From positions 1 to 57,926 of the forward strand of contig CAJXXR010000020.1 of assembly GCA_913063375.1 (NCBI GenBank): 57,926 nt of DNA, in the 5' to 3' direction. The DNA comes from an uncultured Flavobacteriales bacterium (GTDB lineage Bacteria; Bacteroidota; Bacteroidia; Flavobacteriales; CAJXXR01). Under the pieces are notes generated by a model. It saw only the letters and a list, made by a program, of their open reading frames with translations, had not been told where the DNA came from and did no database searches. Positions 16,178-37,137 of the stretch are shown here, one piece after another. Both the position numbers and the translations under genes were made by a program. The stretch's first letter is position 1; each line of letters starts with the position of its first letter.

Positions 16178-16435
16178 ATGAAATTATTTAAAATTACGCT
16201 AATAGTGCTACTTCTAGGATTTACTAGTTGTTCTAACGATCCTCAAGTCCAACAAAAATATCAAGATACCAAAACTGAAATGGACAATACCGTAAAAGAA
16301 ATCAAACAAAAGGTAGAGGAAAAAACAGAACAGATAGACCAAGATATCCAAGCCCTAGAAAAGGACCTTGATAAATTGAATAAGCAATCAAAGGAGATCT
16401 CCAAAAAAGTAGATAATCTGATTAATGAATTGTAA
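16178..16435 (+). CDS. Small coiled-coil lipoprotein (85 aa)
   Basis: Signal plus lipobox LLGFTSCSN, then a K/E/Q-rich heptad sequence. Confidence 0.5.
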   Translation: MKLFKITLIVLLLGFTSCSNDPQVQQKYQDTKTEMDNTVKEIKQKVEEKTEQIDQDIQALEKDLDKLNKQSKEISKKVDNLINEL

Positions 16436-16935: not shown

Positions 16936-17060
16936 CCTTTCGCTACCACCGTAAAAGAGTACAATTAATTTTGTACTCTTTTTTTTTGAATAGCAAGAAT
17001 GGACAACTTGAAATTGTGAATTATGCCTACATTTACCCAAATACTAATCTACAAATAAGC

Positions 17061-17978
17061 ATGGATAACCAATTGCAACAAACCTATATTCAAGGCTTAA
17101 ATAAGGCTCTAATTTTCATTGACAACAATTTAAATAAGCCATTGACACTGGAACAAATTGCAGAAACAAGCAATTATTCACCCTACCACTTTCACCGTAT
17201 TTTCAAAGCCATCACAGGCGAAACGCTCAATAATTACATTAATAGACTTCGCATAGAAAAAATAGCCTCTATATTAATGCGCGTAAAAACAATTCCACTA
17301 GAGCAATTAGCTATAGACTACGGATTCAATAGTGGCTCATCACTATCCAGATCTTTCAAAAAATTCTATGGGATCAGCCCTTCTAGATTTAGAGATATGA
17401 GCAACGAACAGTTTAGCAAGATCCGTCAAACAGAAAGCAAGAATGGACAAGAAAAAATAAGCTTCGAACAATACATTTGCAACATTACTAATCTAAACAA
17501 CTGGATAAAGATGAATGCAAATATCGAAGTAAAAGAGCTGCCAAAAATAGAACTAGCCTATGTAAATCACCAAGGACCCTTTGATCAAATTGGAGTTGCC
17601 TACGGACAACTTATGCAATGGGCAGGTCCACAAGGATTAATGAGTAACCCCAACACAAAAACCTTAACTATCTACCACGATGATCCTAAAGTAACGGATA
17701 CCGCCCTACTAAGACAAAGCGCTTGCATTACATTACATCAAGAAATAAAAACTTCTGGAGCCATTGGAAAAAGAACTATCTCAAAAGGGAAATTTGCTAT
17801 TGGTAGGTTTGAAATAAATTTTGAAGAATTTGAACAATCTTGGAATGGCATGTTCCTTTGGATTACCGAAAAAGGATACCAAACTAGAGATGGTGAATAT
17901 TTTGAAATGTACCATAATAATTTCAATGACCATCCGGAGAAAAAGTGCATCGTTGATATTTGTATTCCTATTATATAA
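17061..17978 (+). CDS. AraC-family transcriptional regulator with C-terminal GyrI-like effector-binding domain
   Basis: AraC HTH (YSPYHFHRIFKAITGETLNNYINRLRIEKIA, SLSRSFKKFYGISPSRFR) followed by a GyrI-like domain (KELPKIELAYVNHQGPFDQIG...). Start taken at MDNQLQQTY (Met31 of the track ORF). Confidence 0.75.
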   Translation: MDNQLQQTYIQGLNKALIFIDNNLNKPLTLEQIAETSNYSPYHFHRIFKAITGETLNNYINRLRIEKIASILMRVKTIPLEQLAIDYGFNSGSSLSRSFKKFYGISPSRFRDMSNEQFSKIRQTESKNGQEKISFEQYICNITNLNNWIKMNANIEVKELPKIELAYVNHQGPFDQIGVAYGQLMQWAGPQGLMSNPNTKTLTIYHDDPKVTDTALLRQSACITLHQEIKTSGAIGKRTISKGKFAIGRFEINFEEFEQSWNGMFLWITEKGYQTRDGEYFEMYHNNFNDHPEKKCIVDICIPII

Positions 17979-18020: not shown

Positions 18021-18049
18021 AAAAAGGCGATCCATGGATCGCCTTTTTT
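18021..18049. terminator. Bidirectional terminator between araC-like (+) and the giant ATPase gene (-)
   Basis: aaaaa, then ggcgatcca/tggatcgcc hairpin, then tttttt. Confidence 0.75.
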
Positions 18050-18075: not shown

Positions 18076-21000
18076 CTATTTCTGAGACAGTACATTTCTA
18101 ATACCATCCAATCCTTCTGTTACAGATTCTATCTGAGAAACAATCATAGCCATTTGATTGTCTCCACCAAAACCTTTTAATTTTTGATTCTTTAAGAAAG
18201 TTCTTTTGATAGCTTCCCAACGAGTCATCTCCGTCGGTTCAATCCATCCAACCAATTCTTTAAACTTCAACAAATTTGCTTCCGCACTTGTTGTAAGCGT
18301 TTGAGATTCGTTTTCATAGGCACTTAGCACAAGCGTCTTTAATTCCTTTTCATTCATTATAGGAATAATCTTCTCTGCTATCTTATTCATATTTCTATAA
18401 GATCCTTGAAGCTTAAAAGAAGGCTCCTCTCTATATTGATCCTCCATGGCTGCAGACTTGATATACTGCATATTCACTTTCAATATGATATCACGTACCT
18501 GAATCAAATGTTTCAATACTGCAACATAATCATTGATCTCTTCTACAGTATGATTGGATTCAAAGGAAATTCCCTCTTGACTATCTGTTGTTGCCAGTTT
18601 AATAAGCGCATATAAATCCTTCTGACTTTTACCAGACAAATTGCGAAGGGTAGAATTTGAAGTCAAACAATTCTCTATATAACTACTCTTAAATACATCG
18701 GCACTGTCCCCGATGATATCCCCTAAATTGTAAATATCAGCTCTATTCGCCAACATATCTGGAATCTGAAACTTATCTCCACTTTCCGTATATGGGTTCC
18801 CAGCCATTACTACACAAACCTTCTTTCCACGAAGATCGTACGTCTTACTTTGCCCCTTGAACACACCTTCAATCTTTCTTTGCCCATCACTCAAGGAAAT
18901 AAACTTCTGCAGAAATTCTGGATTACAATGTTGAATATCATCCAAATAAATCATGATATTATCCCCCATTTCAAATCCTAAATTCAATTTCTCAATCTCC
19001 TCCCTTGCTCCAGCATTTGGTGCACTTTCAGGATCCAAAGAAGTTGTCTCATAGCCCAAGGAAGGCCCATTTATCTTTAAGAAAATCACCCCCAATCGAC
19101 TGGCGATATACTCCATTAAAGTAGTTTTCCCATATCCGGGAGGAGATATCAATAAAAGCATTCCCATTAAATCAGTTCGCTTATTAGCTCCAGCTGTCCC
19201 AATCTGTTTGGCTAGATTATCCCCTATTAATGGCAGGTACACCTTATTGATCAACTTATTTCGAACAAAAGAGCTCATTACCTTTGGCTTCAATTCATCC
19301 AATTTCAAATCCAGCTTATAACGATCTATAAAACTCTTTTTCAAAGTCTTAAATTGATTAAAAGCCGGAACTTCATTCAGCACAAACCCAAGCAACCTCT
19401 TTTTATAATCTTGATAATCCAGGTTTAATTTCTGCTTCTGAATCAAGGAATGTGTTCCATTTAGACCGTCAAGATCCATTTTCAACTCAGTATCGATCAA
19501 ATGCCTTTTATCTGGCCCTGACGTCAACAGCAACATGGAGGCTTCTGAAATTAAATCCTCACTTGTTGGAGTATGAGATTCTGAGTAAGCCTTCAACCAA
19601 CTTTTGGTAATGGAATATTTTGACGAGGCTTTTACCAAGTTTTTAGTCGATTCCTCAAAGCTGGTTTTCAATTTATTTTTATTCAAATAATTTGTAAAAG
19701 CTTCACATAGATCAAAGGCTTCCTTACCAATACTAAAGCTATCATCTGAGGCCAATTCTGTAAATAGATACTTCGATACCTCCACAATATCCGCTTCAGT
19801 AAAAATACCTTCCTCAAGAATAAATTCACCAATTTCCTCACTCAAATCATGAATGAGGTCATCAAATACTTTTGTATTAGGGAAAGCTTTCAAAATATTT
19901 CCTATTCCCTTTATTTGATGATTTAAAATAGAACTCTTATCAGCATCAATAAACAGATTCCAATAAAAGGAAGCACAAGCTCTTGCCGTAGAAGAGTACT
20001 TCAAGACTCCACCCAAATGACCTATCTGCAACAAGGCCTTTACAATAATCAAAGCATCCAAATCATGAACACCTTTTACATAACCTTCGTCATACCTAGG
20101 AGCCATCGTCTCCTCAATCAATTGCAACAAGGCTTCATCGGTTCCTTCCAGCCATTCCGAAAGGCTTTGCGTACCTTTTTCTATAACCTGCAACACCAAC
20201 CAAGCTAAGTACTCAGCACGGTAAATATTTTCATTTTCAGAGACCAAGCCCTGCTTCCATACAGGTCTAGTTCTTAAGAAATCAGGATCTACAATCTGCT
20301 CAAAAAAATTGGTCCCTGTAATATGGTAATACATCTCATTATTCCTTGGAACAATAGACAGATCCAGGAGTTGATTGTTGACAGAAAACTGATGTTTCCC
20401 AAAGGATATAATTCCATCTCCTTGATAAAGTTCTGACTTATCTCTAAGTTGTCTTATAGCTTCTTCATGCGTAGACTTCAACTTACTCTGGATATTATCC
20501 GACTTTACGGTATCACCTAGTTCAACCAGGTCTTTGATAATATTCCTAAGTTTATCAACCATTAGGTCTGATGCCAAATACCCATTGATAGCATTTACAT
20601 CCTTCATTCCAGATAGACGAGTATGAATCCCCTTAATTATTCTTTCAGCAGAAAATTCTAACTGGGCAGTTTTTTTATTTCGTCTTTCTGTAAGTTGAAC
20701 TTTACGAGACTCAAATGCATTGTAGACTTCTTCTCTTTTTTCTGAGATCTTATTCAAAAAGGAATCAAATTCACCAAACTTACCTTCCAACTCTTCGAGC
20801 TGAATCAATAATTTCGTCAAATACTCTTCACATTTCTCAGCTGTATCTGAGATATCCAAATAATTAACCGCACCCTGACCAATCAGCTTCAATTGAGAAT
20901 GGAAAACAGCCTCTCCCTCTGTCAATTGTAAATCCTTCCTTTTTCTCTTTAGGACGGAATTGATCTGATTAAAACGGGCATAGATGGCAGAAATATTATT

Positions 21001-22959
21001 GATAATCTTGGTTGTTTGTGTCGCATCTTCAATTTTCAGATTACTCACAATTTCAATCAACATTTCCAATTCCTGCGAAGTCGTCATCACCTGTTCCTCG
21101 AGGGTATTCACCTCGATGACCTTAGCCAGTTCTTCAACAGCATTATTGAAGCCATCTATTTTCTCCTCATAATAATGTAAAGACCTTGGCTCCAGCAAAT
21201 ATTTCACACACTTATTGGATACATCCTCATTGTGTTTAGTCATCTCCACCTCATGACTTGCAATCAGATCTAGATCTACATATCTAAGATCTTTTAAAGA
21301 AATAACTTCACCTCGAATGGTACGGAGCTCAGCTAAAATTGTCACAAATTCATCAATATGGTCACTCTTCGCAACCTTTATTCTACTGATTAGTTTCTTG
21401 AACTTCTCTGTAAAATCATATTGCTTATCAGCTGTATTCTTTTTAACCTTTACAACCTTATCAAATTCATCTATAGCAAGTGAAGCCGATGATTTTATCT
21501 CTAATAAAGGTTCAGATAATCTATTAGTTTCTTCATCTGCCAACCAATAATAGCTATCAGTAATATCTGTAGTTTTTTTGACTAGATCGAGATAAAGGTT
21601 ATCGTAACTATCTTCTTTTTGAATAAGATTCAAGACCTCATGACATTCCGCCATCGCCCGAACTATATCCTTATTTCCAATTTTACTCAATAGGGATGAG
21701 CTATCTGGATGCAATGTAAAAGATCCCTCTTCAAAGGGTGTTTTCCAAATTTGAACAGCATGATGACTTTGCGCTTCCTCTTCACCTTTGAAAAAGCACA
21801 ATTCACCATTACTAAACAACGAATACCCATGACATACCGTTGGTGTATTCACCTGTTGAGAAATCAAATTATAGGAAAGCAGCACATAAACCCCTGTTTC
21901 ATTATTATTGAAAATATACAAGAAATCTTCCCCATTTGGAGAGGCTAGCATTCGCTGGTACTGCATGGTACCAACCTCAAGGTCAAAGATTTTATACTCC
22001 CCCGTTTGCAAATAATACCCTTGGGAAAAAATCACACCATGATCATCAGGAAGCAAAACACAAGATTGTGCTATTGCATCCACGCGCATAGCTTCTGAAG
22101 CTTTTCTATTGTAAATAATATACCTGAATTCACTTTCCTTATAAGGTTTGATCTTCAAGAATATCATATTGGCAACTACAGCATAATACATTTCCGCATC
22201 ATCCAAAGTTTGATCCTGATAAACTACAGGTTCACTATAAATACCTTTGCCAATTTCTGTATTATCCTCAACCTTTATAGTTAAGTCCCCACCTATAGCT
22301 TCAACAAATATTAGATCTTCAATTGATACATGAGGATGCAAACCATCGCGGTACATGTCCCTAGTGGTTCTTTTCCAAGTAAACTCATATTGATTGGGAT
22401 AGACTACCTCATGACTACTTCTATTATCTATATAATCAATACCATTTTCAGCAACCCTCCACTTAAAAGCTTTAATATCGCTTTCAGCTTTCCCAATTTT
22501 AAAAACCAGATATAAAAAGGGTCCTATTTCAACAAACTTAGTAAACTGAGTTTCCTTATAATATTTATAGAGTTCATTAAAGTCTTCTAGGAACTTCTCA
22601 CTTCCAAGCAAGGACTCATCCTGCTGATGAAAGTTGTGATCCTTATATTCATAAACGCTAAACACGTCTTCCAACTTGGTTCCAGTCCTTAGACCAATAT
22701 GAACATTGTACCCGAAAATAAATCTATCTCCTATAGAAATCATATCTCTAGGAATACACTTATTGGCCGTAGTAACCCTTTCTGTAGAAATTAGGGTAGT
22801 CTCTACAGCGCCAAATAAATTCTTCCTAGAAGTATTTAAGCCTGCTAATCTATCTTGAAGTTCTTTCCCCTGCTTTAATAAACGACTTCGAATGATTTCA
22901 TAAGTCCCTTGCTCCAAAACGGAAGTTCCTCCTTCTGAAGCTTCGTTCAGATCCTTCAT
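18076..22959 (-). CDS. Giant (1627 aa) orphan protein with a MoxR/AAA_5-type ATPase domain near the C-terminus
   Basis: Walker A LISPPGYGKTTL (about residue 1277), Walker B IMIYLDDIQHCNPEFLQKFISL and sensor-1 VCVVMAGNPYT match the MoxR/dynein-related AAA_5 pattern. The ~1250 N-terminal residues have no recognisable motif (mixed alpha and beta). Last gene of the PspA-NfeD-flotillin cluster. Confidence 0.8.
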   Translation of the reverse strand: MKDLNEASEGGTSVLEQGTYEIIRSRLLKQGKELQDRLAGLNTSRKNLFGAVETTLISTERVTTANKCIPRDMISIGDRFIFGYNVHIGLRTGTKLEDVFSVYEYKDHNFHQQDESLLGSEKFLEDFNELYKYYKETQFTKFVEIGPFLYLVFKIGKAESDIKAFKWRVAENGIDYIDNRSSHEVVYPNQYEFTWKRTTRDMYRDGLHPHVSIEDLIFVEAIGGDLTIKVEDNTEIGKGIYSEPVVYQDQTLDDAEMYYAVVANMIFLKIKPYKESEFRYIIYNRKASEAMRVDAIAQSCVLLPDDHGVIFSQGYYLQTGEYKIFDLEVGTMQYQRMLASPNGEDFLYIFNNNETGVYVLLSYNLISQQVNTPTVCHGYSLFSNGELCFFKGEEEAQSHHAVQIWKTPFEEGSFTLHPDSSSLLSKIGNKDIVRAMAECHEVLNLIQKEDSYDNLYLDLVKKTTDITDSYYWLADEETNRLSEPLLEIKSSASLAIDEFDKVVKVKKNTADKQYDFTEKFKKLISRIKVAKSDHIDEFVTILAELRTIRGEVISLKDLRYVDLDLIASHEVEMTKHNEDVSNKCVKYLLEPRSLHYYEEKIDGFNNAVEELAKVIEVNTLEEQVMTTSQELEMLIEIVSNLKIEDATQTTKIINNISAIYARFNQINSVLKRKRKDLQLTEGEAVFHSQLKLIGQGAVNYLDISDTAEKCEEYLTKLLIQLEELEGKFGEFDSFLNKISEKREEVYNAFESRKVQLTERRNKKTAQLEFSAERIIKGIHTRLSGMKDVNAINGYLASDLMVDKLRNIIKDLVELGDTVKSDNIQSKLKSTHEEAIRQLRDKSELYQGDGIISFGKHQFSVNNQLLDLSIVPRNNEMYYHITGTNFFEQIVDPDFLRTRPVWKQGLVSENENIYRAEYLAWLVLQVIEKGTQSLSEWLEGTDEALLQLIEETMAPRYDEGYVKGVHDLDALIIVKALLQIGHLGGVLKYSSTARACASFYWNLFIDADKSSILNHQIKGIGNILKAFPNTKVFDDLIHDLSEEIGEFILEEGIFTEADIVEVSKYLFTELASDDSFSIGKEAFDLCEAFTNYLNKNKLKTSFEESTKNLVKASSKYSITKSWLKAYSESHTPTSEDLISEASMLLLTSGPDKRHLIDTELKMDLDGLNGTHSLIQKQKLNLDYQDYKKRLLGFVLNEVPAFNQFKTLKKSFIDRYKLDLKLDELKPKVMSSFVRNKLINKVYLPLIGDNLAKQIGTAGANKRTDLMGMLLLISPPGYGKTTLMEYIASRLGVIFLKINGPSLGYETTSLDPESAPNAGAREEIEKLNLGFEMGDNIMIYLDDIQHCNPEFLQKFISLSDGQRKIEGVFKGQSKTYDLRGKKVCVVMAGNPYTESGDKFQIPDMLANRADIYNLGDIIGDSADVFKSSYIENCLTSNSTLRNLSGKSQKDLYALIKLATTDSQEGISFESNHTVEEINDYVAVLKHLIQVRDIILKVNMQYIKSAAMEDQYREEPSFKLQGSYRNMNKIAEKIIPIMNEKELKTLVLSAYENESQTLTTSAEANLLKFKELVGWIEPTEMTRWEAIKRTFLKNQKLKGFGGDNQMAMIVSQIESVTEGLDGIRNVLSQK

Positions 22960-23072
22960 GTAAATGATTTAATAATTTGAAATAAAGAAAATACCCACAC
23001 TAATCAATTGTAGTACCAGCACCATGTACCCTACCAATGAGGGTACATCCTACCATAAGGTACTTGAATTAA

Positions 23073-25163
23073 TTAGTTTTGAATGCCTAAAGCACTTGGC
23101 GTGATATCTCCAATTCCAGCAGACTTAACAGCCGACATAAGATCATTCAGCACACCAGTAGTAGAAGTGTTATTGTTTTCTTGCATCATTCTAAACACAA
23201 TAGTAGAAATAGACAAGTTTTTCAAATCTTCTGAACTAATCCCAAATTGATCAATTAGACTTCTAATTTTTTCATTCAAATTTCTCCCGTCTACTTCGTC
23301 TAACAATTGCCCTTTCAATTCAGTCAATATTGCACTATTATTGATGGTTCTCTCTACACGTTTTCCGTTAGATATCGCACCAATAATTTTATCAAAGAAT
23401 ACAGCTTCTCCACCAACAATATCAATTTTGGCAGTTCTCAACGCTGTAGAAAGCACATCAGCTTGAGCATCCGCAATATCCTTTTGAATATGTATTTGAG
23501 CCAATTCAACTTGCTTTTGCATGTCCAATTCTAGCTTAAACTCTTCATGTTCTTTTCCAACACCATCCAACTGCTTCATTGCATCTGCTTTTCTGTGGAT
23601 CCCGTCAGCTTCTACATGGTATTTTTCTTTACTTACAGCGGCTTCTGCAAGTCCTTTCTTCTCATCAGCAATTGCTTTCAATTCAATTACCTGAGCTTCC
23701 GCATTACCCATTTCAACATCAGCCTTAGCTTGTGCTGATTGTGTTAATTCAATTGCTTTTGCTTCTGCAATAGCTTTCGCCTCCAGTATTTGCGCCTCTG
23801 CAATTCCTGAAGCTGCTTCATTTGCAACAGTGGCTTCTGCCATCACCTTGATTGCTTCTGATCTTTGAACAGAAGATTCCTGCTCTGCCTTGGCATCAAT
23901 CATGATTTGTTCAGCTTTAAACTCAGAAGATTTTTTACCGGCTTCCGCAGCTTTTATTTGTTGAACTAAATTAGCCTCGGCCAGCTCTTCGGCTTTAGTT
24001 ACAGCAACCAATTTTTCACGATCCGCTTGAGATTTAGTCTTAGTATCTTTGATGCTTTCCTCTTCAATAACAACCGTTTTTTCAATCGAAACACGCTCTC
24101 TAATTACCTCTTGAATACTTTTCTTCTCTTCTTCAATGGCCTTTTCTTTGGCAATTTGAGCAAGCGTTACTATTCTTTCTCTTTCCGTTACCTCCAACAA
24201 TCTATCCTTTTCAACCTTTTCAGTTTCAACGGCAGCGGTTCTCTCTTTATTTTTAGCAGCAACAATAACCTCTCTTTCCTTGTTTTGTTCTGCTATCTCT
24301 ATCTCTTCCGAAGCAATAATACGAGCCCTTTCAGACTTTAACCTTTCCTCTTCTACAACTTTAGCAATTTCCGCTTCTTCTCTAGATTTGATATTGGCAA
24401 CTTCCCTTTTTTGCTTTTCTTCAGTCTCGGCCAATTGTTTTTCCAATTGCAGAATAGCTTCCCTAGCTTCAACATCTTGTTTTGTAATGGTCTTCTCCTT
24501 ATTCTTTTCAATTTGATTGGATTCAATTTTTTCACGAGACGTGATTTGAATAATCTTCTTAATACCTTCAGCATCTAGAATATTATTTTGATCCATCTTG
24601 AACAAAGGTGTTTGCTCCAAATAATCAATGGCAGCATCATCCAAGATATACCCATTAAGATCTGTACCCAAACTATTTAGAATTTCCTCTCTAAAGGCAT
24701 CACGCTTATTGTATAGATCTACAAAGTCGAATTTTTTACCTACTGTTTTCAAGGCCTCTGAAAACTTTGAATCAAACAAATCATTCAATGACGCAGCATG
24801 CGAAGCCCTTGCACATCCTACAGATTGAGCTACTTGAATAACATCCTGAGCTGTTTTATTTACACGTACAAAAAACACAACCTTAATATCAGCACGCATA
24901 TTATCCTTACATACTAATCCATCAGAACCTTGACGCTCTATTAGAATATTTTTCAAGGAGATATCCATCACCTCCAATTTATGAAGGACAGGTACTACCA
25001 TCATTCCATTAAAGGATACTTTCGTACCTCCAACTCCCGTTCGAACTAGTGACTGTCCCTGAGACGTTTTTTTGTACCATTTAGCAACCATTCCGATGAC
25101 TCCCAACAATACGAGAACCAAAATTATTGTAACCATAAAAGTTGCATTTTGTAACATTTCCAT
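23073..25163 (-). CDS. Flotillin-like SPFH (band-7) domain protein
   Basis: N-terminal TM anchor, an SPFH core, then a long Glu/Ala/Lys-rich coiled-coil flotillin domain. 696 aa, like FloT/YqiK. Confidence 0.85.
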   Translation of the reverse strand: MEMLQNATFMVTIILVLVLLGVIGMVAKWYKKTSQGQSLVRTGVGGTKVSFNGMMVVPVLHKLEVMDISLKNILIERQGSDGLVCKDNMRADIKVVFFVRVNKTAQDVIQVAQSVGCARASHAASLNDLFDSKFSEALKTVGKKFDFVDLYNKRDAFREEILNSLGTDLNGYILDDAAIDYLEQTPLFKMDQNNILDAEGIKKIIQITSREKIESNQIEKNKEKTITKQDVEAREAILQLEKQLAETEEKQKREVANIKSREEAEIAKVVEEERLKSERARIIASEEIEIAEQNKEREVIVAAKNKERTAAVETEKVEKDRLLEVTERERIVTLAQIAKEKAIEEEKKSIQEVIRERVSIEKTVVIEEESIKDTKTKSQADREKLVAVTKAEELAEANLVQQIKAAEAGKKSSEFKAEQIMIDAKAEQESSVQRSEAIKVMAEATVANEAASGIAEAQILEAKAIAEAKAIELTQSAQAKADVEMGNAEAQVIELKAIADEKKGLAEAAVSKEKYHVEADGIHRKADAMKQLDGVGKEHEEFKLELDMQKQVELAQIHIQKDIADAQADVLSTALRTAKIDIVGGEAVFFDKIIGAISNGKRVERTINNSAILTELKGQLLDEVDGRNLNEKIRSLIDQFGISSEDLKNLSISTIVFRMMQENNNTSTTGVLNDLMSAVKSAGIGDITPSALGIQN

Positions 25164-25203
25164 AATCTAATCTGTTTGTTTGTTTATTAGTTTCTTTAAA
25201 AAT

Positions 25204-25860
25204 TTAATCCAATGTTTCGTAAGCCTCTACAATGTAAAATTGAGATTCCTTAATATGGTTTACCACCAATATTCTATCTCCCCTTTTCACTTGACCTTCT
25301 GTAGTTTTGATATTTATTCGATAATTTGAACCAGAGATGATCATCTCTCCTTGCCCCATTCTTGTACTATTGGCAGAAACCACGACATATCCTACTGCCC
25401 CAACCAAATCCTGAACTTCATCAGCATCCTTATCCAACAATGCAAATATCTTAACAAATGGATAGGTCACTGGCTTTGCGACCAACAGACTCACAATAAA
25501 AATGGGCAACAATAATAAGAGTGAAAATAAGAAAGAACCATTTCCCAACATATGATTTACCGTTACAGACAAAAGCCACATCGGAATTACCAAAAAGGTT
25601 AGAAAAACCATTAAAGGTATTTTATCAATATTGAAAAAGGACAGGACATTATTTAACCAGGATACTGAAATATCAGGATTTCCATCACCTTCCACTTCGG
25701 CATCCACTTCAACCTCTGCCTCCATTTCAATCTCTATATCAAATGTGCTGATATCCAATGCTCCGAATATTACAAGCAGCCAATAAAAGATTATAAATAC
25801 CAGCAATGCAGTTGGTATGAAATTTACCGCAGAAAAAGCGGCATGAAAAAGTTCCATCAT
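25204..25860 (-). CDS. NfeD-like membrane protein (short form, C-terminal OB-fold)
   Basis: Hydrophobic N-terminal half with 3-4 TM segments and an acidic EIEMEAEVEVDAEVEGD insert. The C-terminal beta-barrel (GQGEMIISGSNYRINIKTTEGQVKRGDRILVV) resembles YuaF/NfeD partners of flotillins. Located 40 nt upstream of the flotillin gene. Confidence 0.55.
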   Translation of the reverse strand: MMELFHAAFSAVNFIPTALLVFIIFYWLLVIFGALDISTFDIEIEMEAEVEVDAEVEGDGNPDISVSWLNNVLSFFNIDKIPLMVFLTFLVIPMWLLSVTVNHMLGNGSFLFSLLLLLPIFIVSLLVAKPVTYPFVKIFALLDKDADEVQDLVGAVGYVVVSANSTRMGQGEMIISGSNYRINIKTTEGQVKRGDRILVVNHIKESQFYIVEAYETLD

Positions 25861-25919
25861 GATCTAATAATTAATGAAGTATACCTAGTAAGTTTAAATT
25901 TGATCCTTTAGAATTGAAC

Positions 25920-26618
25920 TTATTTATTCAATCCCATTTTGGCTTTAAGGGCTGCCAAACTAGTAGCCGCATTTAATTCCTTGAGAGTCGTGTCAATTTC
26001 AACGCGTACCAGTTCATCAGAATCATTCAATTGAGCATATCCCTCAGCACTTGCTTCTTCCTGCAGTACTTTATCTTTCATTCTCTCCAACATGGCAATG
26101 GTACCAGATGAATCTATTTGCGCTATGTCTTTATTCAATTCTTTGGTAGTGGAAGCAACTACGGCACGTGCCCTCAATGTTTTCAATTCAGAATCCCATT
26201 GATCAACATTTAACTTCACTCGGCTAATATTGGCATTAAGCTGGGACAATGATGCATCAATCTTTTGCTTGTTCTTAGATGACTCCTTACTAAATTGTAT
26301 CTGCTCTTCTCGAAGAATCAATGCCTGGGTCGCCAACCAGTCAGCTTGCTCTTTATCCAAATCTCCATTCTTAGCACGTTCCAAAAGAATGCTAGCCTTT
26401 TCTTCATAATCTTTAGCCTTTGCAAGAAATTTTTCATGCTCATTCCTAGCTCTAATAGACATCGCCTTTACTTCTGCAAATGCTTTAAGGTGACTCTCTA
26501 AATGATTTTTCATATCTCTAATTCCTTGCTCCATAAGTTTAATTGGATCCTCCAATTTATCGATTGCAGAATGGGATTCTGCTTCACCAATCTTAAATAA
26601 ACGTTTTAAAAAATTCAT
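25920..26618 (-). CDS. PspA/IM30 (Vipp1, ESCRT-III-like) family protein, paralogue 1
   Basis: 232 aa coiled-coil protein. N-terminus MNFLKRLFKIGEAESHSAIDKLEDPIKLMEQGIRDMKNHL is collinear with PspA. First gene of the cluster. Confidence 0.85.
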   Translation of the reverse strand: MNFLKRLFKIGEAESHSAIDKLEDPIKLMEQGIRDMKNHLESHLKAFAEVKAMSIRARNEHEKFLAKAKDYEEKASILLERAKNGDLDKEQADWLATQALILREEQIQFSKESSKNKQKIDASLSQLNANISRVKLNVDQWDSELKTLRARAVVASTTKELNKDIAQIDSSGTIAMLERMKDKVLQEEASAEGYAQLNDSDELVRVEIDTTLKELNAATSLAALKAKMGLNK

Positions 26619-27172
26619 TATTTAACTAGTATTGATTCCCTGAATTAAAATAAATTAAGTAGAATACATTAAAAAATAACAACCCTATGAACCTTAGAGG
26701 AGCATGGTTAAAATCCATACACAATTATACTATTATTTTTAGCCATTTCCAAAAAATACAACGTGTTTTTATAACAAAATTGATATATAATTCAAAAACA
26801 AAACGGCTTATCCACATAAAACACAGGACAAACAAAGAATAACACACTCAAAACTAATAAATTATATAAAAACTAAAAATACCAGCACCAAGCATACTAA
26901 TATTATTAGCAATAAATACAATTTGTATTTATCTTTCCCCACTATATTTGTACATTTGATCTTCATTAACAAACAGATTATTAAAGGGCAATAAATATCA
27001 ATTATTCAAAATATAATTGTTCTGATTAAAAAAAAGGTTTTTATTGCATTGATGATTATCTACAATCCCTAAAAAGATAATCTAAACCACAGATTATTAA
27101 ATAAATACATCAATTTCAAAGGTGTATTTATAACATATGAAGTTTTATACTTCTAAAGAATAAATAAGCAAA

Positions 27173-28714
27173 TTGAAAAAAAGTCAATCTAGAATACTAA
27201 AATTAGCACTTTTCGCCACAGGACTATCTGGGATAGTTGCTGAATATATTTTATCCACCCTTGCCACCTACTTCCTTGGAGATTCTGTATTCCAATGGAC
27301 CATGATCCTTTCCATCATGTTATTTTCCATGGGGCTTGGAGCTAGGCTTAGCATGAAATTCAAAACCAATATTTTAGAAAAATTTCTAATTGCTGAATTT
27401 CTACTAACCCTTCTTACTTCAACTGCCGCCCTAACTACCTATTTCTTTATGGGGCATGCTGAAAATCTGGGATTCATCATATACAGCTTCTGTATTAGTA
27501 TTGGCCTTTTGATAGGTATGGAAATCCCACTGGTAACTAGGGTTAATGAAGAAAATGAAGAACTAAGAACCAATATTGCAGGTGTATTAGAAAACGACTA
27601 TTATGGAAGTTTGATAGGTGGTTTATTCTTTGTATTCATTGGTCTTCCTTATTTAGGCCTTACCCACACGCCATTTATTTTGGGTACCATCAACTTCCTA
27701 GTAGCCATATTACTTTTCATCAAACTAAAAGATCATATTGCTAAAAGGTTCAAAATTGGCTTTGCCATCACCATTCCAAGTTTAATAATTATACTAAGCT
27801 TCCTTAGCTATAATGCAGATGAGATAGTTCTATACGGGGAGCAAAAAAGATACAATGACAAGGTTGTTTTCTCTAAACAAACCAAATACCAAAAAATCAC
27901 AATCACCCAATGGCAAGAAAATTACTGGCTATACCTTAATTCCAGCAAACAACTTTGCACGTTTGATGAGTGGCTTTACCATGAACCACTGGTACATCCA
28001 GTAATGAAACTAACAACACACCCTAAGCATGTATTAATCCTAGGCGCAGGAGATGGTTGCGCAATCCGAGAGGTATTGAAATACGAAAATGTTGAAAAAA
28101 TCACCCTCGTAGACATTGATCCTGAGATGACCAAAATTGGTAGGTCCAACGAAATTTTCGTTAAGATGAACGACAGCGCCTATTACGATCCCAAAGTAAC
28201 GGTTATCAATCAGGACGCATTCCAATTTCTAGAAAATAATGAAGAATTTTACGATGTCATGATCCTAGATTTCCCTGATCCAAAAAGCATTGATATCAAC
28301 AGAGTTTATACCAAGGAATTTTACACCCTCTGCAACAAAAGACTTCGCCCATTGGGACATATCATTACCCAAGCCGTAAGCCCATATTATACAACAAAAG
28401 CCTTTAGGTCCATTGAAAAAACATTAGCTGCCTCTGGATTCAATACACTTCCAATTCACAACCACGTATACTCTTTTGGCGAGTGGGGATGGGTAATAGG
28501 TTCCAAATTCCAAGATAAGGAGAAAATGAAACAGCATCTACTGAAATCCAATTATCAAGATTTAGATGTACAATGGATCACCAATGAATCCATTAATCTT
28601 ATGACCTCCTTTGGCAAAGACCTTATCAAAGCAGATGACATAGAAGTAAACACCATTCATAACCCTGTCTTATACCGCTATTACCTAGACGGAACTTGGG
28701 CTAGATACCTGTAA
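27173..28714 (+). CDS. Membrane-anchored spermidine synthase-like aminopropyltransferase (paralogue 1)
   Basis: About 200 aa with ~7 TM helices, then a Spermine_synth domain (VLILGAGDGCAIREVL, TLVDIDPEMT, ILDFPDP). Confidence 0.75.
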   Translation: MKKSQSRILKLALFATGLSGIVAEYILSTLATYFLGDSVFQWTMILSIMLFSMGLGARLSMKFKTNILEKFLIAEFLLTLLTSTAALTTYFFMGHAENLGFIIYSFCISIGLLIGMEIPLVTRVNEENEELRTNIAGVLENDYYGSLIGGLFFVFIGLPYLGLTHTPFILGTINFLVAILLFIKLKDHIAKRFKIGFAITIPSLIIILSFLSYNADEIVLYGEQKRYNDKVVFSKQTKYQKITITQWQENYWLYLNSSKQLCTFDEWLYHEPLVHPVMKLTTHPKHVLILGAGDGCAIREVLKYENVEKITLVDIDPEMTKIGRSNEIFVKMNDSAYYDPKVTVINQDAFQFLENNEEFYDVMILDFPDPKSIDINRVYTKEFYTLCNKRLRPLGHIITQAVSPYYTTKAFRSIEKTLAASGFNTLPIHNHVYSFGEWGWVIGSKFQDKEKMKQHLLKSNYQDLDVQWITNESINLMTSFGKDLIKADDIEVNTIHNPVLYRYYLDGTWARYL

Positions 28715-28717
28715 TCT

Positions 28718-29797
28718 ATGTGGCTATTTAGCAGAAAAAAAGACTTTGGTATTCTGTACTTACCAGTATGGATAATCTGGATACTCCTATTCCTTCTTCC
28801 CAACGCAACACTCCATAGTGAACTTCCATTATGGGTTTGGGTCGTATTCATATTAGGAATAGATGTAAGCCATGTATGGAGCACTATTTTTAGAACCTAT
28901 TTTGACAAGCAAGAATTTAAGAGACACAAAACCATTTTAATTCTAGCCCCGATTTTTGCATTCATTATCCTGTTAGGAATTGCGCTAGAATCTTCTTTAT
29001 ACTTTTGGAGGACATTGGCTTATTTAGCGGTTTTCCACTTCATGAAACAACAATATGGGTTTTTCGCACTCTACAGTGCTAAAACAAAATCTTTTAACAA
29101 ACATAGATTTCTCAATGATAAATGGGTTCTCTACACCAGTATGCTATTCCCGGTACTATTCTGGCATTTCACCGACCGAAATTTTGACTGGTTCCTAGCT
29201 GGTGATTTCTTCTCTTTCAACTACCAACTAAGTGAGCAATTACAAAATGTACTAATCATTGCCTACTGGGGGATTTTACTAGCTTGGTTTATCGAAGAGA
29301 TTCACTTAATCAAAACAAAAGCAATAAAGCTATCATATGGGAGGATGTTATGGATGGGAACCACAGCTTTCAATTGGTTTCTAGGAATTATTTGGTTCAA
29401 CTCTGATGTTGCATTTACGCTAACCAATGTAGTTGCACACGGCATCCCTTATATCGCATTGATAATCATTTATCAAAATGCAAAAAGAAGCACAAAGAAT
29501 ACACTTCTTTATAAAAATGCATTTATTACTGGAGCAAGTATTTTGGTCTTTTCCTTCCTTTTTGCATTTTCTGAAGAATATCTTTGGGATATGTTTCTAA
29601 ACCGTGAAAAAACTGCATTTTTCAACAGTATTTTCCAGTATAGATTTGATAGTCTTACCAATGAAAAACTACAGTCCCTACTGCTAGTCACACTATCATT
29701 ACCACAGGTTACACATTATATCTTGGACGGATTTATTTGGAAAATGAATGACTCCAATCCACATCTTAAAAATATTTTAACAAAAGGAAATGGATAG
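28718..29797 (+). CDS. Polytopic membrane protein with conserved His clusters, function unknown
   Basis: 359 aa, 8 or more TM segments, recurrent His motifs (HVWSTIF, FHFMKQQYG, HGIPY). Starts 3 nt after the stop of 27173..28714 and overlaps the next gene by 8 nt. Confidence 0.55.
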   Translation: MWLFSRKKDFGILYLPVWIIWILLFLLPNATLHSELPLWVWVVFILGIDVSHVWSTIFRTYFDKQEFKRHKTILILAPIFAFIILLGIALESSLYFWRTLAYLAVFHFMKQQYGFFALYSAKTKSFNKHRFLNDKWVLYTSMLFPVLFWHFTDRNFDWFLAGDFFSFNYQLSEQLQNVLIIAYWGILLAWFIEEIHLIKTKAIKLSYGRMLWMGTTAFNWFLGIIWFNSDVAFTLTNVVAHGIPYIALIIIYQNAKRSTKNTLLYKNAFITGASILVFSFLFAFSEEYLWDMFLNREKTAFFNSIFQYRFDSLTNEKLQSLLLVTLSLPQVTHYILDGFIWKMNDSNPHLKNILTKGNG

Positions 29798-31301
29798 AAG
29801 AATGTTCTTAAAGTTAAGCGGAGGATTACTTTTCCTATCTGCTTGTGACAATGATTTTACCCAAAAATCTAAATTGAAAAATACTAGATTTAAAATCCAC
29901 ATCGACTCCAATGATAAAATTGGACACTTGGTACGATCTGCCGTCCAACTACCAATTTCAAGTACCATCAAAACAGAGACATTAATTGTAGGGGCAGGAA
30001 TATCTGGACTATCTGCTGCATGCACATTAAAGTCAAATGACTTTCAACTGTGTGAATTGAATCCAAACTTAGGCGGAACCTCAAGTGCCGTATCTATCCA
30101 TGGGAATTTATATTCACAAGGCGCCCATTACGATTTAGCCTATCCTAGCAATTATGGGAAGGATGGCTTAGAACTACTAGAACAGTTAAACGTTATCCAG
30201 TTTAACAGCACTAAAAACCTTTGGGAATTCAAAGACAAACAATACTTGATCTCTTCAAAAAATGAAGAAGCTTGTTATGATAACGGGAAATTGAGGGCTT
30301 CCATTTTAGAAGATTCCGAATTAAAGAAAAACTTTCTATCCTTAATAAAAGAATACGATAATCAATTCCCCCTACCAAGTACAGCGATCTCATCAGAATT
30401 ACATCATTTAGATCATATTTCTTTTGAAGACTACCTTAGGAAGTATCTACCTATTGACAATCATTTCCTTGAAGCAATTGACTATCAAATGTTGGATGAT
30501 TATGGAGCCGCAAGTAAACAAATATCTGCTCTTGCAGGTATCCATTACTATAAATGCCGCCCCTATTACAACCATCAGGAAATTGAACTATTTTCGCCAC
30601 AAAAAGGAAATTACTACTTCATAGAAAAGATGGTTGAGCAACTTCCTGAAGAAAACATTAACAGCAACCATTTAGTATTTAAGATTGAGCAAGAAGGAGC
30701 CAAATGGAAAGCAGACGTATTGGATGTTTTAAACATGTCAAGAAAACAATTCATTGTAGACAAATTGATTTATGCAGGACAAAAGCACGTTTTAAAATAT
30801 GCTCACCCTTCCTCATATCAAGAATTCAGTGACATAGATTATGCACCTTGGATTGTCATAAATTTAGAATTGGACGACTCACTACTTGACGGAAGTAAAT
30901 GGCAAAATGACTTTTTATCTCCCAATAGATCATTCCTAGGATTTGTTGATTCAAAAAATCAAGACAATACAAACACTCGAGTATTAACAGCCTACCACTG
31001 CTTCCCGGACATACACCACTTTATTGTTCAAAATATTTCAACCCATGCAGAAGACTTGGTAAACGAAACAATCAACAACATATCCCTATACTTTAAAAGA
31101 GATATTAGCCCAATGGTAAAACAAGTCCATGTAAAACTATTGGGACACGCCATGCCAATTCCGAAATTGGGTTACTTAACCAAGCAAAGAGTATTGGAAA
31201 AGGATGGTTTAGCATTTGCAGGGGCTGACACGGGAAGATTACCACTTATGTTCGATGCAATGGATTCTGGAATACAGGCCAGCAAATCGCTCGAAATATA
31301 A
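29790..31301 (+). CDS. Tat-exported FAD-dependent amine-oxidase-family lipoprotein
   Basis: Twin-arginine motif DRRMFLK plus lipobox LSAC. Dinucleotide fold VGAGISGLSAAC...LNPNLGGT, typical of flavin amine oxidase and protoporphyrinogen-oxidase-like enzymes. Confidence 0.6.
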   Translation: MDRRMFLKLSGGLLFLSACDNDFTQKSKLKNTRFKIHIDSNDKIGHLVRSAVQLPISSTIKTETLIVGAGISGLSAACTLKSNDFQLCELNPNLGGTSSAVSIHGNLYSQGAHYDLAYPSNYGKDGLELLEQLNVIQFNSTKNLWEFKDKQYLISSKNEEACYDNGKLRASILEDSELKKNFLSLIKEYDNQFPLPSTAISSELHHLDHISFEDYLRKYLPIDNHFLEAIDYQMLDDYGAASKQISALAGIHYYKCRPYYNHQEIELFSPQKGNYYFIEKMVEQLPEENINSNHLVFKIEQEGAKWKADVLDVLNMSRKQFIVDKLIYAGQKHVLKYAHPSSYQEFSDIDYAPWIVINLELDDSLLDGSKWQNDFLSPNRSFLGFVDSKNQDNTNTRVLTAYHCFPDIHHFIVQNISTHAEDLVNETINNISLYFKRDISPMVKQVHVKLLGHAMPIPKLGYLTKQRVLEKDGLAFAGADTGRLPLMFDAMDSGIQASKSLEI

Positions 31302-32843
31302 CTAATACAAATCCCAATTACCATCTAAATAGTAACGGTACAGTACTGGAGAATTTATAGTATTTACTTCCACCTTAGAGGTGTCAAACAAGGGTTTTCC
31401 AAAAGAAGTAATCAACTGAATAGACTCCCTATTCAACCATTTATTATTCAAATAGCTATAATCAGATTGACGCATTATATCAATCATTTTATCTTTAGTT
31501 AGACGCTTACTACCAATTATCCAACCCCATTCCCCTAAGGTCAAAACCTGATTATGCATCGGTAATGTATGGAATCCGGAAGATGACATTGTAGTCTCTA
31601 TGCACTTAAAAGCCTTAGTAGCATAATAGGGACTTCCAGCTTGGGTAATGATATGACCATTTGGGCGCAATAAACGATAAGCCATCTGATAAAATTCCTG
31701 CGTATACAACTTATTCAAATCGATACTTTTGGCATCAGGTAGATCAACAATTATTAAGTCAAAATAAGTTTCACACTGCTCTAAATATTTAAACCCATCC
31801 TGATTTAATATAGCAACCTTCGGATTAAAAAGGGCTGAATCATTATACTGTGTTAAGCCTTTAAAATCCATTCCTATTCGAGTCATTGCAGGGTCCAAAT
31901 CCACCAAGGTGATTTGATCCACATCCTCGTATTTTAAAAGCTCCTTCACATTAAAGCCATCTCCACCACCAATTATTAGAACGTCCTTATGCTCTGGAGT
32001 CAATGCAACTACTGGATGTACCATCGGCTCATGGTACAAAAACTCATCGAAGGTACTTAGTTGTTGATTTCCATTTATAAACAACCAATAATGCTCCTTC
32101 CATTGGGTAATGGTTATTTTCTGATAAGGAGTTTGCTCCGTGTATACAATCTTATCTTTATACCTAGATTGCTCACCAAACAGAACTACCTTTTCTGAAA
32201 GCGAAAATCCAACCATCAACAACAAACTAATGAAAAAGGAAACAGAATAAACCCACTTTTTTAATTGCGGATAATAGGACTTATAGTTCCAATACAATAA
32301 GACTGCAACAGTAAAATTTAAGGCACCGAAGGCGAATGCTGTATTGGTAATACCCAAGTATGGAAGACCAAAAAAGGCAAATGACAATCCCCCTATCAAA
32401 CTACCAATATAATCCCAAGACATAATATTGGATATATTCTTATCCAAACTTTCATGCTTCTCATTCAAGCGTGTTACTAGCGGGATTTCAAAACCAATAC
32501 AAACACCAATCAATAAGGCCAAACCATAAATTAGAATATGGATGAAATTGGTTGCTGAAGCTAAAGAGTAAACAACTAAAGGAGAAAAACTTATTAATAA
32601 TGATAAGGCAAATTCAACTGCAATAAAAGTGGCCAACAAATCTTTTGTCACAAATCGACTTAGACGACTCCCCACCCCCATTGCAAACAACATAATAGAC
32701 AAAACAACTGTCCATTGTATAATAGTATCACCTATAAAATAAGAGGCAAGGGTAGATAAAATAAATTCAGAAGTAAAGCCAGAAATTCCTGTGGCAAAAA
32801 TGGCCAACTTCAACCAAGTACCCTTGTCGATTTTAAACTGCAT
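31302..32843 (-). CDS. Membrane-anchored spermidine synthase-like aminopropyltransferase (paralogue 2)
   Basis: 513 aa, same architecture as 27173..28714 (VLIIGGGDGFNVKELL, TLVDLDPAMT, IVDLPDA). Its stop codon abuts the stop of the convergent FAD-oxidase gene (TAACTA). Confidence 0.75.
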   Translation of the reverse strand: MQFKIDKGTWLKLAIFATGISGFTSEFILSTLASYFIGDTIIQWTVVLSIMLFAMGVGSRLSRFVTKDLLATFIAVEFALSLLISFSPLVVYSLASATNFIHILIYGLALLIGVCIGFEIPLVTRLNEKHESLDKNISNIMSWDYIGSLIGGLSFAFFGLPYLGITNTAFAFGALNFTVAVLLYWNYKSYYPQLKKWVYSVSFFISLLLMVGFSLSEKVVLFGEQSRYKDKIVYTEQTPYQKITITQWKEHYWLFINGNQQLSTFDEFLYHEPMVHPVVALTPEHKDVLIIGGGDGFNVKELLKYEDVDQITLVDLDPAMTRIGMDFKGLTQYNDSALFNPKVAILNQDGFKYLEQCETYFDLIIVDLPDAKSIDLNKLYTQEFYQMAYRLLRPNGHIITQAGSPYYATKAFKCIETTMSSSGFHTLPMHNQVLTLGEWGWIIGSKRLTKDKMIDIMRQSDYSYLNNKWLNRESIQLITSFGKPLFDTSKVEVNTINSPVLYRYYLDGNWDLY

Positions 32844-32860
32844 TCAAGTAGAATTTAAGC

Positions 32861-33751
32861 CTAAGAAAAGCTCATACAGATTAGCATAGAACCACCCACA
32901 TATGCAAAGGCTTCAATTACAGCAGCGCCTACATTTGGATGTTCTTGGTTGATGATTTCATCTACCAATTTTCTTTTCGGAAGTAAGATCTTATCTGTCA
33001 AGATCCTAGCAATAGGCAATAACAACAGACCAATACCAGTTTCAAACAATAGATTCTCACCCACCATCATCCAACTTTCAGCCTCCATTTGAGCACCGAA
33101 TCTTATCAAATTCCCAATAGCAACTATTGCGCCTGCGAATCCTATTCCAACCGCTACATTATCTTTTTCAATATGCTCATGAATATCATAAGGTGTGATG
33201 GCATTATAAACCAATGCAACCAACATCAAAGCGACTTGAGCAAAGAGCCAGAATAGTAAAATACCAATAAAATTGTCTTGATTCTCTGCTATGACACCGC
33301 TAATAATCAATCCATTTGCAATACAAACAGCTCCCTCAATAACTCCTAAACCAACATTTTGATCTTCTATAATTTCCTTTTTTACGGAATACTTTCTCAA
33401 AACAACCTTATCAGAGATGATCATAGAAACATTTAGCAATACAATTGCCAATAATCCATAAATGGAAATATCTATAATATTATCTACGATATGATCAACT
33501 CCGTCTCCCGCATAAACGGCTGATATGACAATAACCAACCCAACATAATACCCAACATGAGCAAATGAAAAAGCTAGGTTATCTTTTTCCACCAATTCAT
33601 GATCTAAATCGATATCCTTATGAATTAATTGATATACTTTCTTCCCTACTAAAAATAGAACAAAGCTAACAGCCAAGTAAACCAAAGCCGTAAGTAGATT
33701 ATCTAATGATGATAAAAAATTAAAATGCATACTAGTATAGTTTAAATTCAA
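32861..33751 (-). CDS. Membrane protein with two tandem DUF350-like repeats (YjfL-like)
   Basis: Two internally repeated halves, each ...Y..I...D...E....N.A......G..V.......AV. The second ends ITPYDIHEHIEKDNVAVGIGFAGAIVAIGNLI. DUF350 assignment is from memory of the YjfL family. Confidence 0.45.
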   Translation of the reverse strand: MNLNYTSMHFNFLSSLDNLLTALVYLAVSFVLFLVGKKVYQLIHKDIDLDHELVEKDNLAFSFAHVGYYVGLVIVISAVYAGDGVDHIVDNIIDISIYGLLAIVLLNVSMIISDKVVLRKYSVKKEIIEDQNVGLGVIEGAVCIANGLIISGVIAENQDNFIGILLFWLFAQVALMLVALVYNAITPYDIHEHIEKDNVAVGIGFAGAIVAIGNLIRFGAQMEAESWMMVGENLLFETGIGLLLLPIARILTDKILLPKRKLVDEIINQEHPNVGAAVIEAFAYVGGSMLICMSFS

Positions 33752-33759
33752 TTAGGGAA

Positions 33760-34458: not shown

Positions 34459-34465
34459 CTATGTT

Positions 34466-34996: not shown

Positions 34997-34999
34997 AAT

Positions 35000-35815: not shown

Positions 35816-36178
35816 TTACGATACTTGCATTATTCCCAATCCTCTCTTTACACTTTGATAACTATGATTTTTTGATTGTAATTTTTCTACCAAATAATCA
35901 TAGGTTTTCAAATAATCCATTTTCAGATTACAGGTGAAAAAATCCACTGCAGCATAACCGTTCTCTGGCCAAGTATGAATAGCCAAATGACTCTCTGCAA
36001 CAACAACAACTCCTGTTACTCCTTGAGGTGAAAATTTGTGAAAAACTGATTTTATCACAGTTGCTTTGGAAGCCTTAGCAGCTGCAATCATATCCACCTC
36101 CAATTCCTCCATATTATCTAACGCATCAAAAGAACAATCATTGAATTCCATTAAAATATGTAAGCCTAATTCCGCCAT
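35816..36178 (-). CDS. speD: S-adenosylmethionine decarboxylase proenzyme (class 1, pyruvoyl-dependent)
   Basis: 120 aa. Self-cleavage/pyruvoyl site VVVVAESHLAIHTWPE and FTCNLK match SpeH/SpeD. Confidence 0.8.
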   Translation of the reverse strand: MAELGLHILMEFNDCSFDALDNMEELEVDMIAAAKASKATVIKSVFHKFSPQGVTGVVVVAESHLAIHTWPENGYAAVDFFTCNLKMDYLKTYDYLVEKLQSKNHSYQSVKRGLGIMQVS

Positions 36179-36382: not shown

Positions 36383-36402
36383 CAATTCTTGATTAGGAAA
36401 TA

Positions 36403-37125: not shown

Positions 37126-37137
37126 AACTACTGTTCC

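Follow-up and report, generated by a model that had tools for sequence, protein, structure and literature searches.

A rearranged Flavobacteriales copy of the PspA-flotillin-AAA+ operon encodes an orthologue of the giant Pseudomonas aeruginosa ATPase BacE

We analysed a 57,926-nt stretch of DNA from an uncultured Flavobacteriales bacterium (CAJXXR01; assembly GCA_913063375.1, contig CAJXXR010000020.1, positions 1-57,926; hereafter the window), in which four co-directional genes on the minus strand encode, in this order, a PspA/IM30 protein (PspA-1), a YqiJ-type short NfeD membrane protein, a YqiK-type flotillin and a giant AAA+ ATPase. The ATPase is the orthologue of Pseudomonas aeruginosa BacE (PA3728). 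Across phyla, the constant unit consists of the YqiJ-type protein, the flotillin and the ATPase, and PspA is a recurrent, lineage-restricted addition. A preliminary description of the locus, made from the sequence alone, had suggested that the ATPase remodels a membrane scaffold of PspA and flotillin; we confirm the observation behind it and find partial support for the interpretation. The operon type has already been published by Ravi et al. (2024; PMC11237479), who likewise inferred a remodelling role for the AAA+ protein, and the window locus is a rearranged copy of this operon.

The main evidence for the constant unit comes from gene neighbourhoods. A scan of one genome per species yielded 80 loci with full-length relatives of the ATPase (48-57% identity), which belonged to Bacteroidota, Planctomycetota, Verrucomicrobiota, Desulfobacterota, Kiritimatiellota and Hydrogenedentota. 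Open reading frames (ORFs) were called at these loci and searched with the window proteins. Sixty of the loci had 3.2 kb or more of upstream DNA, and in 56 of these 60 a flotillin gene was located directly upstream of the ATPase gene and on the same strand; the same held for a YqiJ-like gene in 53; the full-length flotillin copies at the relatives' loci were found with E-values of 1e-165 to 1e-266. The preliminary description had suggested examining whether the ATPase is syntenic with its presumed partners elsewhere, and for the flotillin this is clearly the case. PspA, on the other hand, was found upstream in 21 of the 34 Bacteroidota loci with at least 5 kb of upstream DNA but in none of 25 loci of other phyla, and a search with the PspA family hidden Markov model (HMM) within ±10 kb of the loci revealed no further copies (again 0/25 outside Bacteroidota). 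Thus, of the partnership proposed originally, the flotillin part stood while the PspA part turned out to be restricted by lineage, and given these counts we consider flotillin and YqiJ, rather than PspA, to be the ATPase's constant partners.

The pairing of flotillin and YqiJ with the ATPase spans at least nine phyla, and a triad of small protein, SPFH protein and ATPase was also present on Pseudomonas, Streptomyces and Deinococcus replicons. Escherichia coli carries yqiJK without the ATPase, whereas the ATPase is almost never seen without flotillin, which makes it look like an accessory of the flotillin complex. In Bacteroidota, a 131-aa CesT/Tir-like gene precedes PspA in 17 loci, and a divergent XRE regulator gene is located upstream, on the opposite strand, in 20. 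A further copy of the cluster is located at 84.4-97.6 kb of pQBR103, a 425-kb environmental megaplasmid of Pseudomonas fluorescens SBW25 (loci L086 and L089 of our scan), with the order YjfI, PspA, rhomboid, DUF2491, DUF350, DUF1190 and GspS, followed at the end by the YqiJ-like protein, the SPFH protein and the ATPase. The presence of the full cluster on this plasmid indicates that the module is horizontally mobile.

The giant ATPase (18076-22959, minus strand; 1627 aa) had initially been described as a protein whose only recognisable part is a MoxR-type ATPase domain, and structure prediction had been proposed for its N-terminal region of ~1250 aa. The first of these statements was wrong. 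DUF3686 (PF12458) covers residues 33-471 (E-value of 4e-182; 606 bits) and DUF7902 (PF25472) residues 593-675 (88 bits), while the AAA module at residues 1268-1391 is matched by PF00004 with 35 bits and by AAA_5 with 27 bits. The same architecture of PF12458, PF25472 and a C-terminal AAA domain was shared by 240 out of 240 among the homologues listed. As for the N-terminal region, an AlphaFold2 model of residues 1-1195 (10-sequence alignment; mean predicted local distance difference test (pLDDT) of 74) resolved it into a predicted beta domain (~55-406), a coiled coil with long helices (~430-841), a small beta domain (~851-888) and a helical domain (~914-1145), which are predicted to be followed by the AAA+ module (~1230-1450) and a C-terminal helical domain. 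Foldseek searches with the beta domain (residues 55-406) returned WD40-type propellers, namely DCAF1 (target TM-score of 0.40-0.43), Vps18 and clathrin, with no specific relative among them, and we therefore speak of the DUF3686 region as a predicted beta-propeller. More than 5000 homologues were scored for this large family, in which a single P. aeruginosa sequence cluster comprises 3222 member sequences.

Within the AAA+ module, the Walker A motif (GYGKTT), the Walker B motif (DDIQH) and the sensor-1 Asn are invariant in the family alignment. The Walker B motif (residues 1336-1343, YLDDIQH) carries an invariant DD instead of DE, which we take to resemble the 'IDDIQ' motif of the DnaA type. 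Assignment to the MoxR type is not established, given that PF00004 outscores AAA_5 and that the comparison of the AAA alignment with E. coli RavA by hhalign reached a probability of 17%. The corresponding comparison with FtsH gave 91%, over 36 P-loop columns only, and phmmer and profile searches of the PDB with the giant protein likewise retrieved nothing but P-loop similarity, to p97, VAT and RuvB. No VWA partner gene was seen among the scanned window genes or at the annotated loci of relatives and P. aeruginosa that were inspected, the neighbour clusters of the 80 loci having been only partly scanned with Pfam.

We assigned the ATPase to BacE on three grounds. First, a 1746-aa P. aeruginosa protein with the DUF3686, DUF7902 and AAA domains shares 41% identity with the window ATPase over 1633 aa. 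Second, its gene has the expected neighbourhood, being preceded by genes for a DUF2170 protein, PspA, a 213-aa protein and a 688-aa protein and followed by PLDc_2, YaeQ, RecJ and a peptidase_M4 gene, presumably lasB. Third, the protein contains the peptide IKVMDR, which is encoded by the published PA14_16190 primer for reverse transcription PCR (RT-PCR). In P. aeruginosa, bacE belongs to the 'biofilm-associated cluster' bacABCDEF (PA3732-PA3727), which in PA14 was found by RT-PCR to be a single transcript, including the bacD-bacE junction; when bacA is mutated, BacB to BacF all go up, by 6- to 13-fold, which points to co-regulation, and control by sigma-54 has been proposed based on a -24/-12 promoter motif (PMC10948618). 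In the literature on adaptation to cystic fibrosis, PA3728 is listed only as 'ATPase'.

The gene preceding the ATPase (23073-25163, minus strand) encodes a 696-aa protein with an N-terminal transmembrane segment, an SPFH domain, a long Glu/Ala-rich coiled coil and a conserved C-terminal region. Its original labelling as a flotillin was borne out by a BLASTP alignment with E. coli YqiK (E-value of 1e-43) that spans 451 aa at 27% identity, pairs residues 7-444 with residues 9-438 of YqiK and thereby covers the transmembrane and SPFH region. Searches with Pfam, including the Band_7/flotillin models, gave no family for this protein even at E=10, and no precomputed family was present for its orthologues, which RefSeq names 'SPFH domain-containing' or 'flotillin family'; present Pfam models do not reach so divergent a subfamily. 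The protein shares 79% identity with its nearest relative and is conserved over its whole length across phyla. It is worth recording for annotation that this highly conserved subfamily, which Pfam models miss, is readily found by BLASTP with E. coli YqiK.

Upstream of the flotillin gene, with a gap of 40 nt, lies the gene for the 218-aa YqiJ-type protein (25204-25860, minus strand), which consists of an N-terminal transmembrane segment, an acidic loop, further transmembrane segments and a C-terminal OB-like domain. Pfam gave no match to the window protein alone even at E=10, and pairwise BLASTP against E. coli YqiJ reached an E-value of 0.003 only. A profile of 24 orthologues, however, aligned end to end with YqiJ (hhalign probability of 96.4%, E-value of 1e-9, 184 columns). 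Fourteen of the 24 orthologues matched PF21001 (YqiJ_N), two matched NfeD (PF01957; best E-value of 0.0049), and the sole PDB match of the profile was a weak one to the NfeD domain of YuaF (2k14; E-value of 0.031). The label 'NfeD-like' used at the outset is hence acceptable, even though 'YqiJ-type' is more precise.

PspA-1, encoded by the first gene (25920-26618, minus strand; 232 aa), is a member of the ESCRT-III-like PspA/IM30 family, as had been proposed: it matches positions 3-216 of the 220 positions of PF04012 with 105.5 bits (cut-off of 33.9). Since its scores with the equivalog models of E. coli PspA and LiaH were far below the cut-offs, we regard it as a family member and not as an orthologue of either protein. 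A second PspA gene, PspA-2, is present at 36403-37125. The two proteins are 46% identical, with an 11-residue deletion in PspA-1. The nearest relative has a single PspA, which shares 64% identity with PspA-2 and 54% with PspA-1, and PspA-1 is accordingly the diverged duplicate. It also lacks an adjacent CesT/Tir partner gene.

ORF calls reproduced exactly the coordinates, the common orientation and the gaps of 59, 40 and 113 nt between successive genes that had been reported for the operon. Likewise, a bidirectional intrinsic terminator 3' of the ATPase gene (18021-18049, strand-neutral) was recovered, with a perfect 13-14 bp stem, A6/T6 flanks that place an A-run and a T-run on either side, and folding energies of -18.1 and -18.5 kcal/mol on the two strands (z-scores of -6.0 and -6.9). 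The 113-nt spacer between flotillin and ATPase does contain the 7-bp hairpin at 23010-23030 without a T-run noted previously; taken in full, the spacer shows no folding beyond that of shuffled sequences (z-score of -1.4), and no terminator-like sites were found in any of the three spacers of the operon. Co-transcription of flotillin and ATPase, which had been called plausible, was demonstrated by RT-PCR for the P. aeruginosa orthologues (PMC10948618), while the signs in the window are indirect, namely short gaps, the absence of an operon-internal terminator and a strong terminator after the last gene. An AT-rich region of 554 nt upstream of PspA-1 (26619-27172, minus strand), common to the operon and a divergent spermine-synthase gene, is the presumed promoter region. 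A motif scan located a single Bacteroidetes-type -7 motif (TAGTTTTG; minus strand, 26849-26856) there and none in the three operon spacers, but since the motif was not enriched over chance, it is only suggestive as a promoter element. A sigma-70 promoter scan remained at chance level, and an Rfam search of 17.8-38.5 kb gave no match.

The gene identities, the predicted domain layout, the conserved synteny and the BacE orthology are established by these data. How the components would work together is a matter of interpretation, and we give about even chances to the following one. The locus, a Bacteroidota copy of the published phage shock protein (PSP)-flotillin-AAA+ operon, would serve as a maintenance and stress module of the cytoplasmic membrane, in which the ATPase acts on the YqiJ-flotillin assembly. 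The invariant core comprises the YqiJ-type membrane protein, the YqiK-type flotillin, which presumably assembles into a large SPFH oligomer at the membrane's inner face, and a dedicated, soluble giant ATPase. We infer that the beta-propeller and the ~400-aa coiled coil dock onto the flotillin/YqiJ assembly and that ATP use by the C-terminal AAA+ module drives the assembly, remodelling or disassembly of the scaffold, or the processing of clients held in it; where the ATPase docks, what its substrate is and in which direction the ATP-driven step runs are all part of this proposal. PspA (ESCRT-III-like), an add-on of particular lineages that is seen in Bacteroidota and gamma-proteobacteria, would contribute membrane sealing at these patches and might serve the ATPase as another substrate. 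An SPFH scaffold working with an AAA+ machine also has precedents. One is the pair of prohibitin and the m-AAA protease. Another is HflK/C with FtsH (cited in PMC13086221); our proposal draws on this precedent and on the asymmetry that the ATPase is almost never found without flotillin, whereas flotillin pairs such as E. coli yqiJK exist without the ATPase.

Several findings weigh against this interpretation. In 4 of the 60 loci the ATPase was alone, with no flotillin gene within the upstream flank (at most 10 kb). In 23 loci (21 from Bacteroidota, one each from Desulfobacterota and Verrucomicrobiota) unrelated genes separate flotillin and ATPase, and tight translational coupling of the two is therefore not required. 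These inserts, 0.5-2.4 kb in size, are heterogeneous, with an IS200-like transposase and a DUF559-like gene among them, and give the junction the look of an insertion hot-spot. We had considered a conserved extra gene in this gap of other Bacteroidota and rejected it because of this heterogeneity. Esterase-like and AbiEii-like ORFs, judged by eye, also occur among the inserts. With respect to the ATPase itself, a Walker B motif with DD in place of DE may mean slow, switch-like hydrolysis and not a processive motor. Moreover, an AlphaFold2 model of residues 1180-1627 (10-sequence alignment) had a mean pLDDT of 62, with values below 50 in the ATPase core, and Foldseek with this low-confidence AAA+ model returned generic AAA+ matches only, none with an E-value below 0.006. 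Our literature search retrieved no paper that mentions DUF3686 or addresses the function of the protein, and no biochemical or genetic study of any member of the ATPase family. Lastly, deletions of the P. aeruginosa flotillin (paFlo) genes had no pronounced phenotype (PMC13086221).

In a version of the original interpretation that is centred on PspA, the giant ATPase would be a functional analogue of Vps4 that recognises PspA polymers and disassembles or remodels them with ATP, with flotillin and YqiJ serving only as the membrane platform. We consider this unlikely. PspA is indeed encoded directly upstream of the YqiJ-flotillin-ATPase trio in the 21 of 34 Bacteroidota loci, in P. aeruginosa and on pQBR103, and in this genome a PspA duplicate was kept with the trio after rearrangement. 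An SPFH protein tethers PspA in Bacillus subtilis (PMC8581546), and according to a 2025 review (PMC7619361) neither a Vps4-like factor in bacteria nor such a regulator of bacterial PspA is known, which leaves the niche open. Yet none of the 25 loci outside Bacteroidota had PspA within ±10 kb, as judged by the family HMM, and the ATPase is equally conserved there, for which a PspA-specific role cannot account and which renders it the less likely version; in those lineages that do carry PspA, the ATPase may have a Vps4-like, PspA-centred role. The protein architecture does not favour it either, as the N-terminus is a predicted beta-propeller, Pfam found neither an MIT domain nor the Vps4 C-terminal oligomerisation domain (Vps4_C) in the giant protein, and its similarity to AAA proteins of the classic clade is confined to the P-loop. 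One could go further and suppose that, with the DUF3686 AAA+ protein, bacteria would have a first known machine dedicated to remodelling a membrane scaffold by means of ATP, a convergent functional counterpart of Vps4 that would dock on flotillin cages with its beta-propeller and coiled coil and turn over PspA/ESCRT-III polymers where PspA is present; this bolder proposal, too, we deem improbable.

Alternatively, flotillin and NfeD might hold unfolded or damaged membrane proteins, and the AAA+ protein might act as the ATP-dependent unfoldase, extractase or refoldase of these clients rather than as a remodeller of the scaffold. Such a role would draw on the same synteny as an action on the YqiJ-flotillin assembly, it has the HflK/C-FtsH pair as a precedent, and it would be in line with the report that FloA and NfeD of Staphylococcus aureus keep unfolded proteins stable independently of ATP (PMC11222466, summarised in PMC13086221). 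However, no protease or chaperone domain was found in the ATPase or in the conserved neighbours, and our analysis does not separate clients from scaffold as the substrate; we view this explanation as rather doubtful.

A role in phage defence or another conflict, in which the giant ATPase would combine with a PLD-type effector and an XRE regulator in an often plasmid-borne system, appears very improbable. It could account for the PLD/HKD gene and the XRE regulator that flank the operon in relatives and in P. aeruginosa, for the copies on large plasmids and for a weak PADLOC match to mad8 (E-value of 0.0037). None of the four proteins, however, had a significant PADLOC match, the PLD and XRE genes were not found in the window, and full-length identities of 41-57% across phyla together with 3222 members in P. 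aeruginosa are atypical of fast-evolving, patchily distributed defence genes.

Hardly credible, finally, is an SMC/SbcC-like DNA-repair ATPase that merely happens to be encoded beside membrane genes, as its database name, the long coiled coil and weak RuvB_N and AAA_22 matches might suggest, since the RuvB matches span only ~50 P-loop residues and stay under the curated cut-offs, no nuclease or DNA-binding domain was found, the protein is an AAA+ ATPase and not of the ABC type of SMC and SbcC, and its conserved neighbours are all membrane proteins. The name, given by NCBI and Pfam as 'DNA repair ATPase' or 'ATPase involved in DNA repair', most likely stems from coiled-coil similarity and is probably a misnomer that is spreading to thousands of genomes. 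In the DUF3686 family generally, we noted no support for DNA repair in domain content or conserved neighbourhood.

The surroundings of the operon differ from those in related genomes. The nearest relatives with genomic context (L082, L083, L092 and L093) have ATPases with 65-71% identity. In the three whose contigs reach upstream of the YqiJ gene (L082, L083 and L093), the genes form one colinear cluster with a single PspA: divergent PLD and XRE genes are followed by CesT, PspA, YqiJ, flotillin, ATPase and two TerB-like genes, and in L083 and L092 the polyamine genes come directly next. In the window, by contrast, a second operon of PSP and polyamine genes (31302-37533, minus strand; Pfam assignments) comprises, in order, CesT_Tir_1 (37138-37533), PspA-2, AdoMet decarboxylase, an ion channel, DUF4178, a lipoprotein-like gene, DUF350 and a 7TM-spermine synthase. 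Between this companion and the operon, three polyamine genes on the plus strand (27173-31301; Pfam assignments) encode another 7TM-spermine synthase, a 359-aa unknown protein and an amine oxidase, and the same three are found in L083 and L092. The region directly upstream of PspA-1 (26619-27172) contains no ORF of at least 60 aa and no CesT homologue. Given the single colinear cluster of the relatives and the identities among the PspA proteins (64, 54 and 46%), the window represents a lineage-specific rearrangement: the trio was split off, leaving the CesT-PspA dyad behind, and the diverged PspA duplicate now stands at its head. That a PspA copy was kept with the trio is mild evidence for a selective benefit of expressing PspA together with the module.

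Directly after the ATPase, the nearest relatives encode two small proteins with faint similarity to TerB and an ORF of 33-46 aa (L082, 14912-15851; L083, 14605-15522; L092, 7842-8722; L093, 15050-15975). The PLD (by tblastn), XRE and TerB genes were not found in the window, where the terminator follows the ATPase. Adjoining the operon, the complete PSP/polyamine supercluster (27173-37533) corresponds to the operon groups that Ravi et al. list second and third. On the other side, past the terminator, an 85-aa ORF (16178-16435, plus strand) has weak, sub-cut-off Pfam matches of coiled-coil type (Fzo_mitofusin, Mu Gam); it adjoins a gene for an AraC/GyrI-like regulator (16971-17978) and is probably unrelated to the operon.

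Taken by itself, the window locus contributes no more than one rearranged variant in which PspA is duplicated. The ATPase family, on the other hand, is large, well defined, widespread and extremely conserved, is almost always encoded beside a flotillin gene and is open to experimental testing; it bears on the question of how bacteria build and take apart flotillin cages and PspA/ESCRT-III polymers. In practical terms, the analysis provides the link to BacE/PA3728 in the tractable model P. aeruginosa, points to flotillin/YqiJ rather than PspA as the constant partner and supplies a domain map to guide constructs.

With regard to known systems, the resemblance to ESCRT-III/Vps4 and HflK/C-FtsH is one of analogy only, in that a membrane polymer or cage is coupled to an AAA+ ATPase; homology is limited to the AAA+ fold, and the window ATPase has neither an MIT nor a protease domain but an N-terminus of predicted propeller and coiled coil. 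The yqiJ-yqiK pair of E. coli consists of homologous proteins in the same order, but that locus has no ATPase or PspA, and YqiK is 143 aa shorter than the window flotillin, of which only the first 444 aa were aligned by BLASTP. Much closer is bacABCDEF, with the same order on one strand of PspA (BacB), YqiJ/short NfeD (BacC), flotillin (BacD/PaFlo3) and DUF3686-AAA+ ATPase (BacE). The window operon differs in that no CesT/Tir gene (BacA) precedes PspA-1, CesT_Tir_1 being 10.5 kb away with PspA-2; in that the PLD gene (BacF), present in relatives and P. aeruginosa, was not detected in the window by tblastn; and in that the CesT family is PF22550 in Bacteroidota vs DUF2170 in Pseudomonas. Ravi et al. 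(PMC11237479, section 19) described, as their Group 1, an operon of CesT/Tir-PspA, a band-7/flotillin protein, a novel AAA+ protein with coiled coil and beta-propeller and YqiJ/YuaF, for which they inferred ATP-dependent assembly or remodelling beneath the membrane, and they noted that abbreviated operons without PspA are more widespread. The window splits this ancestral supercluster, with the PspA duplicate heading the trio and the CesT/Tir-PspA dyad residing with the polyamine genes. The components are the same, however, the layout of propeller, coiled coil and helical domain predicted here agrees with their description, and our locus counts reproduce the greater frequency of the PspA-less operons.

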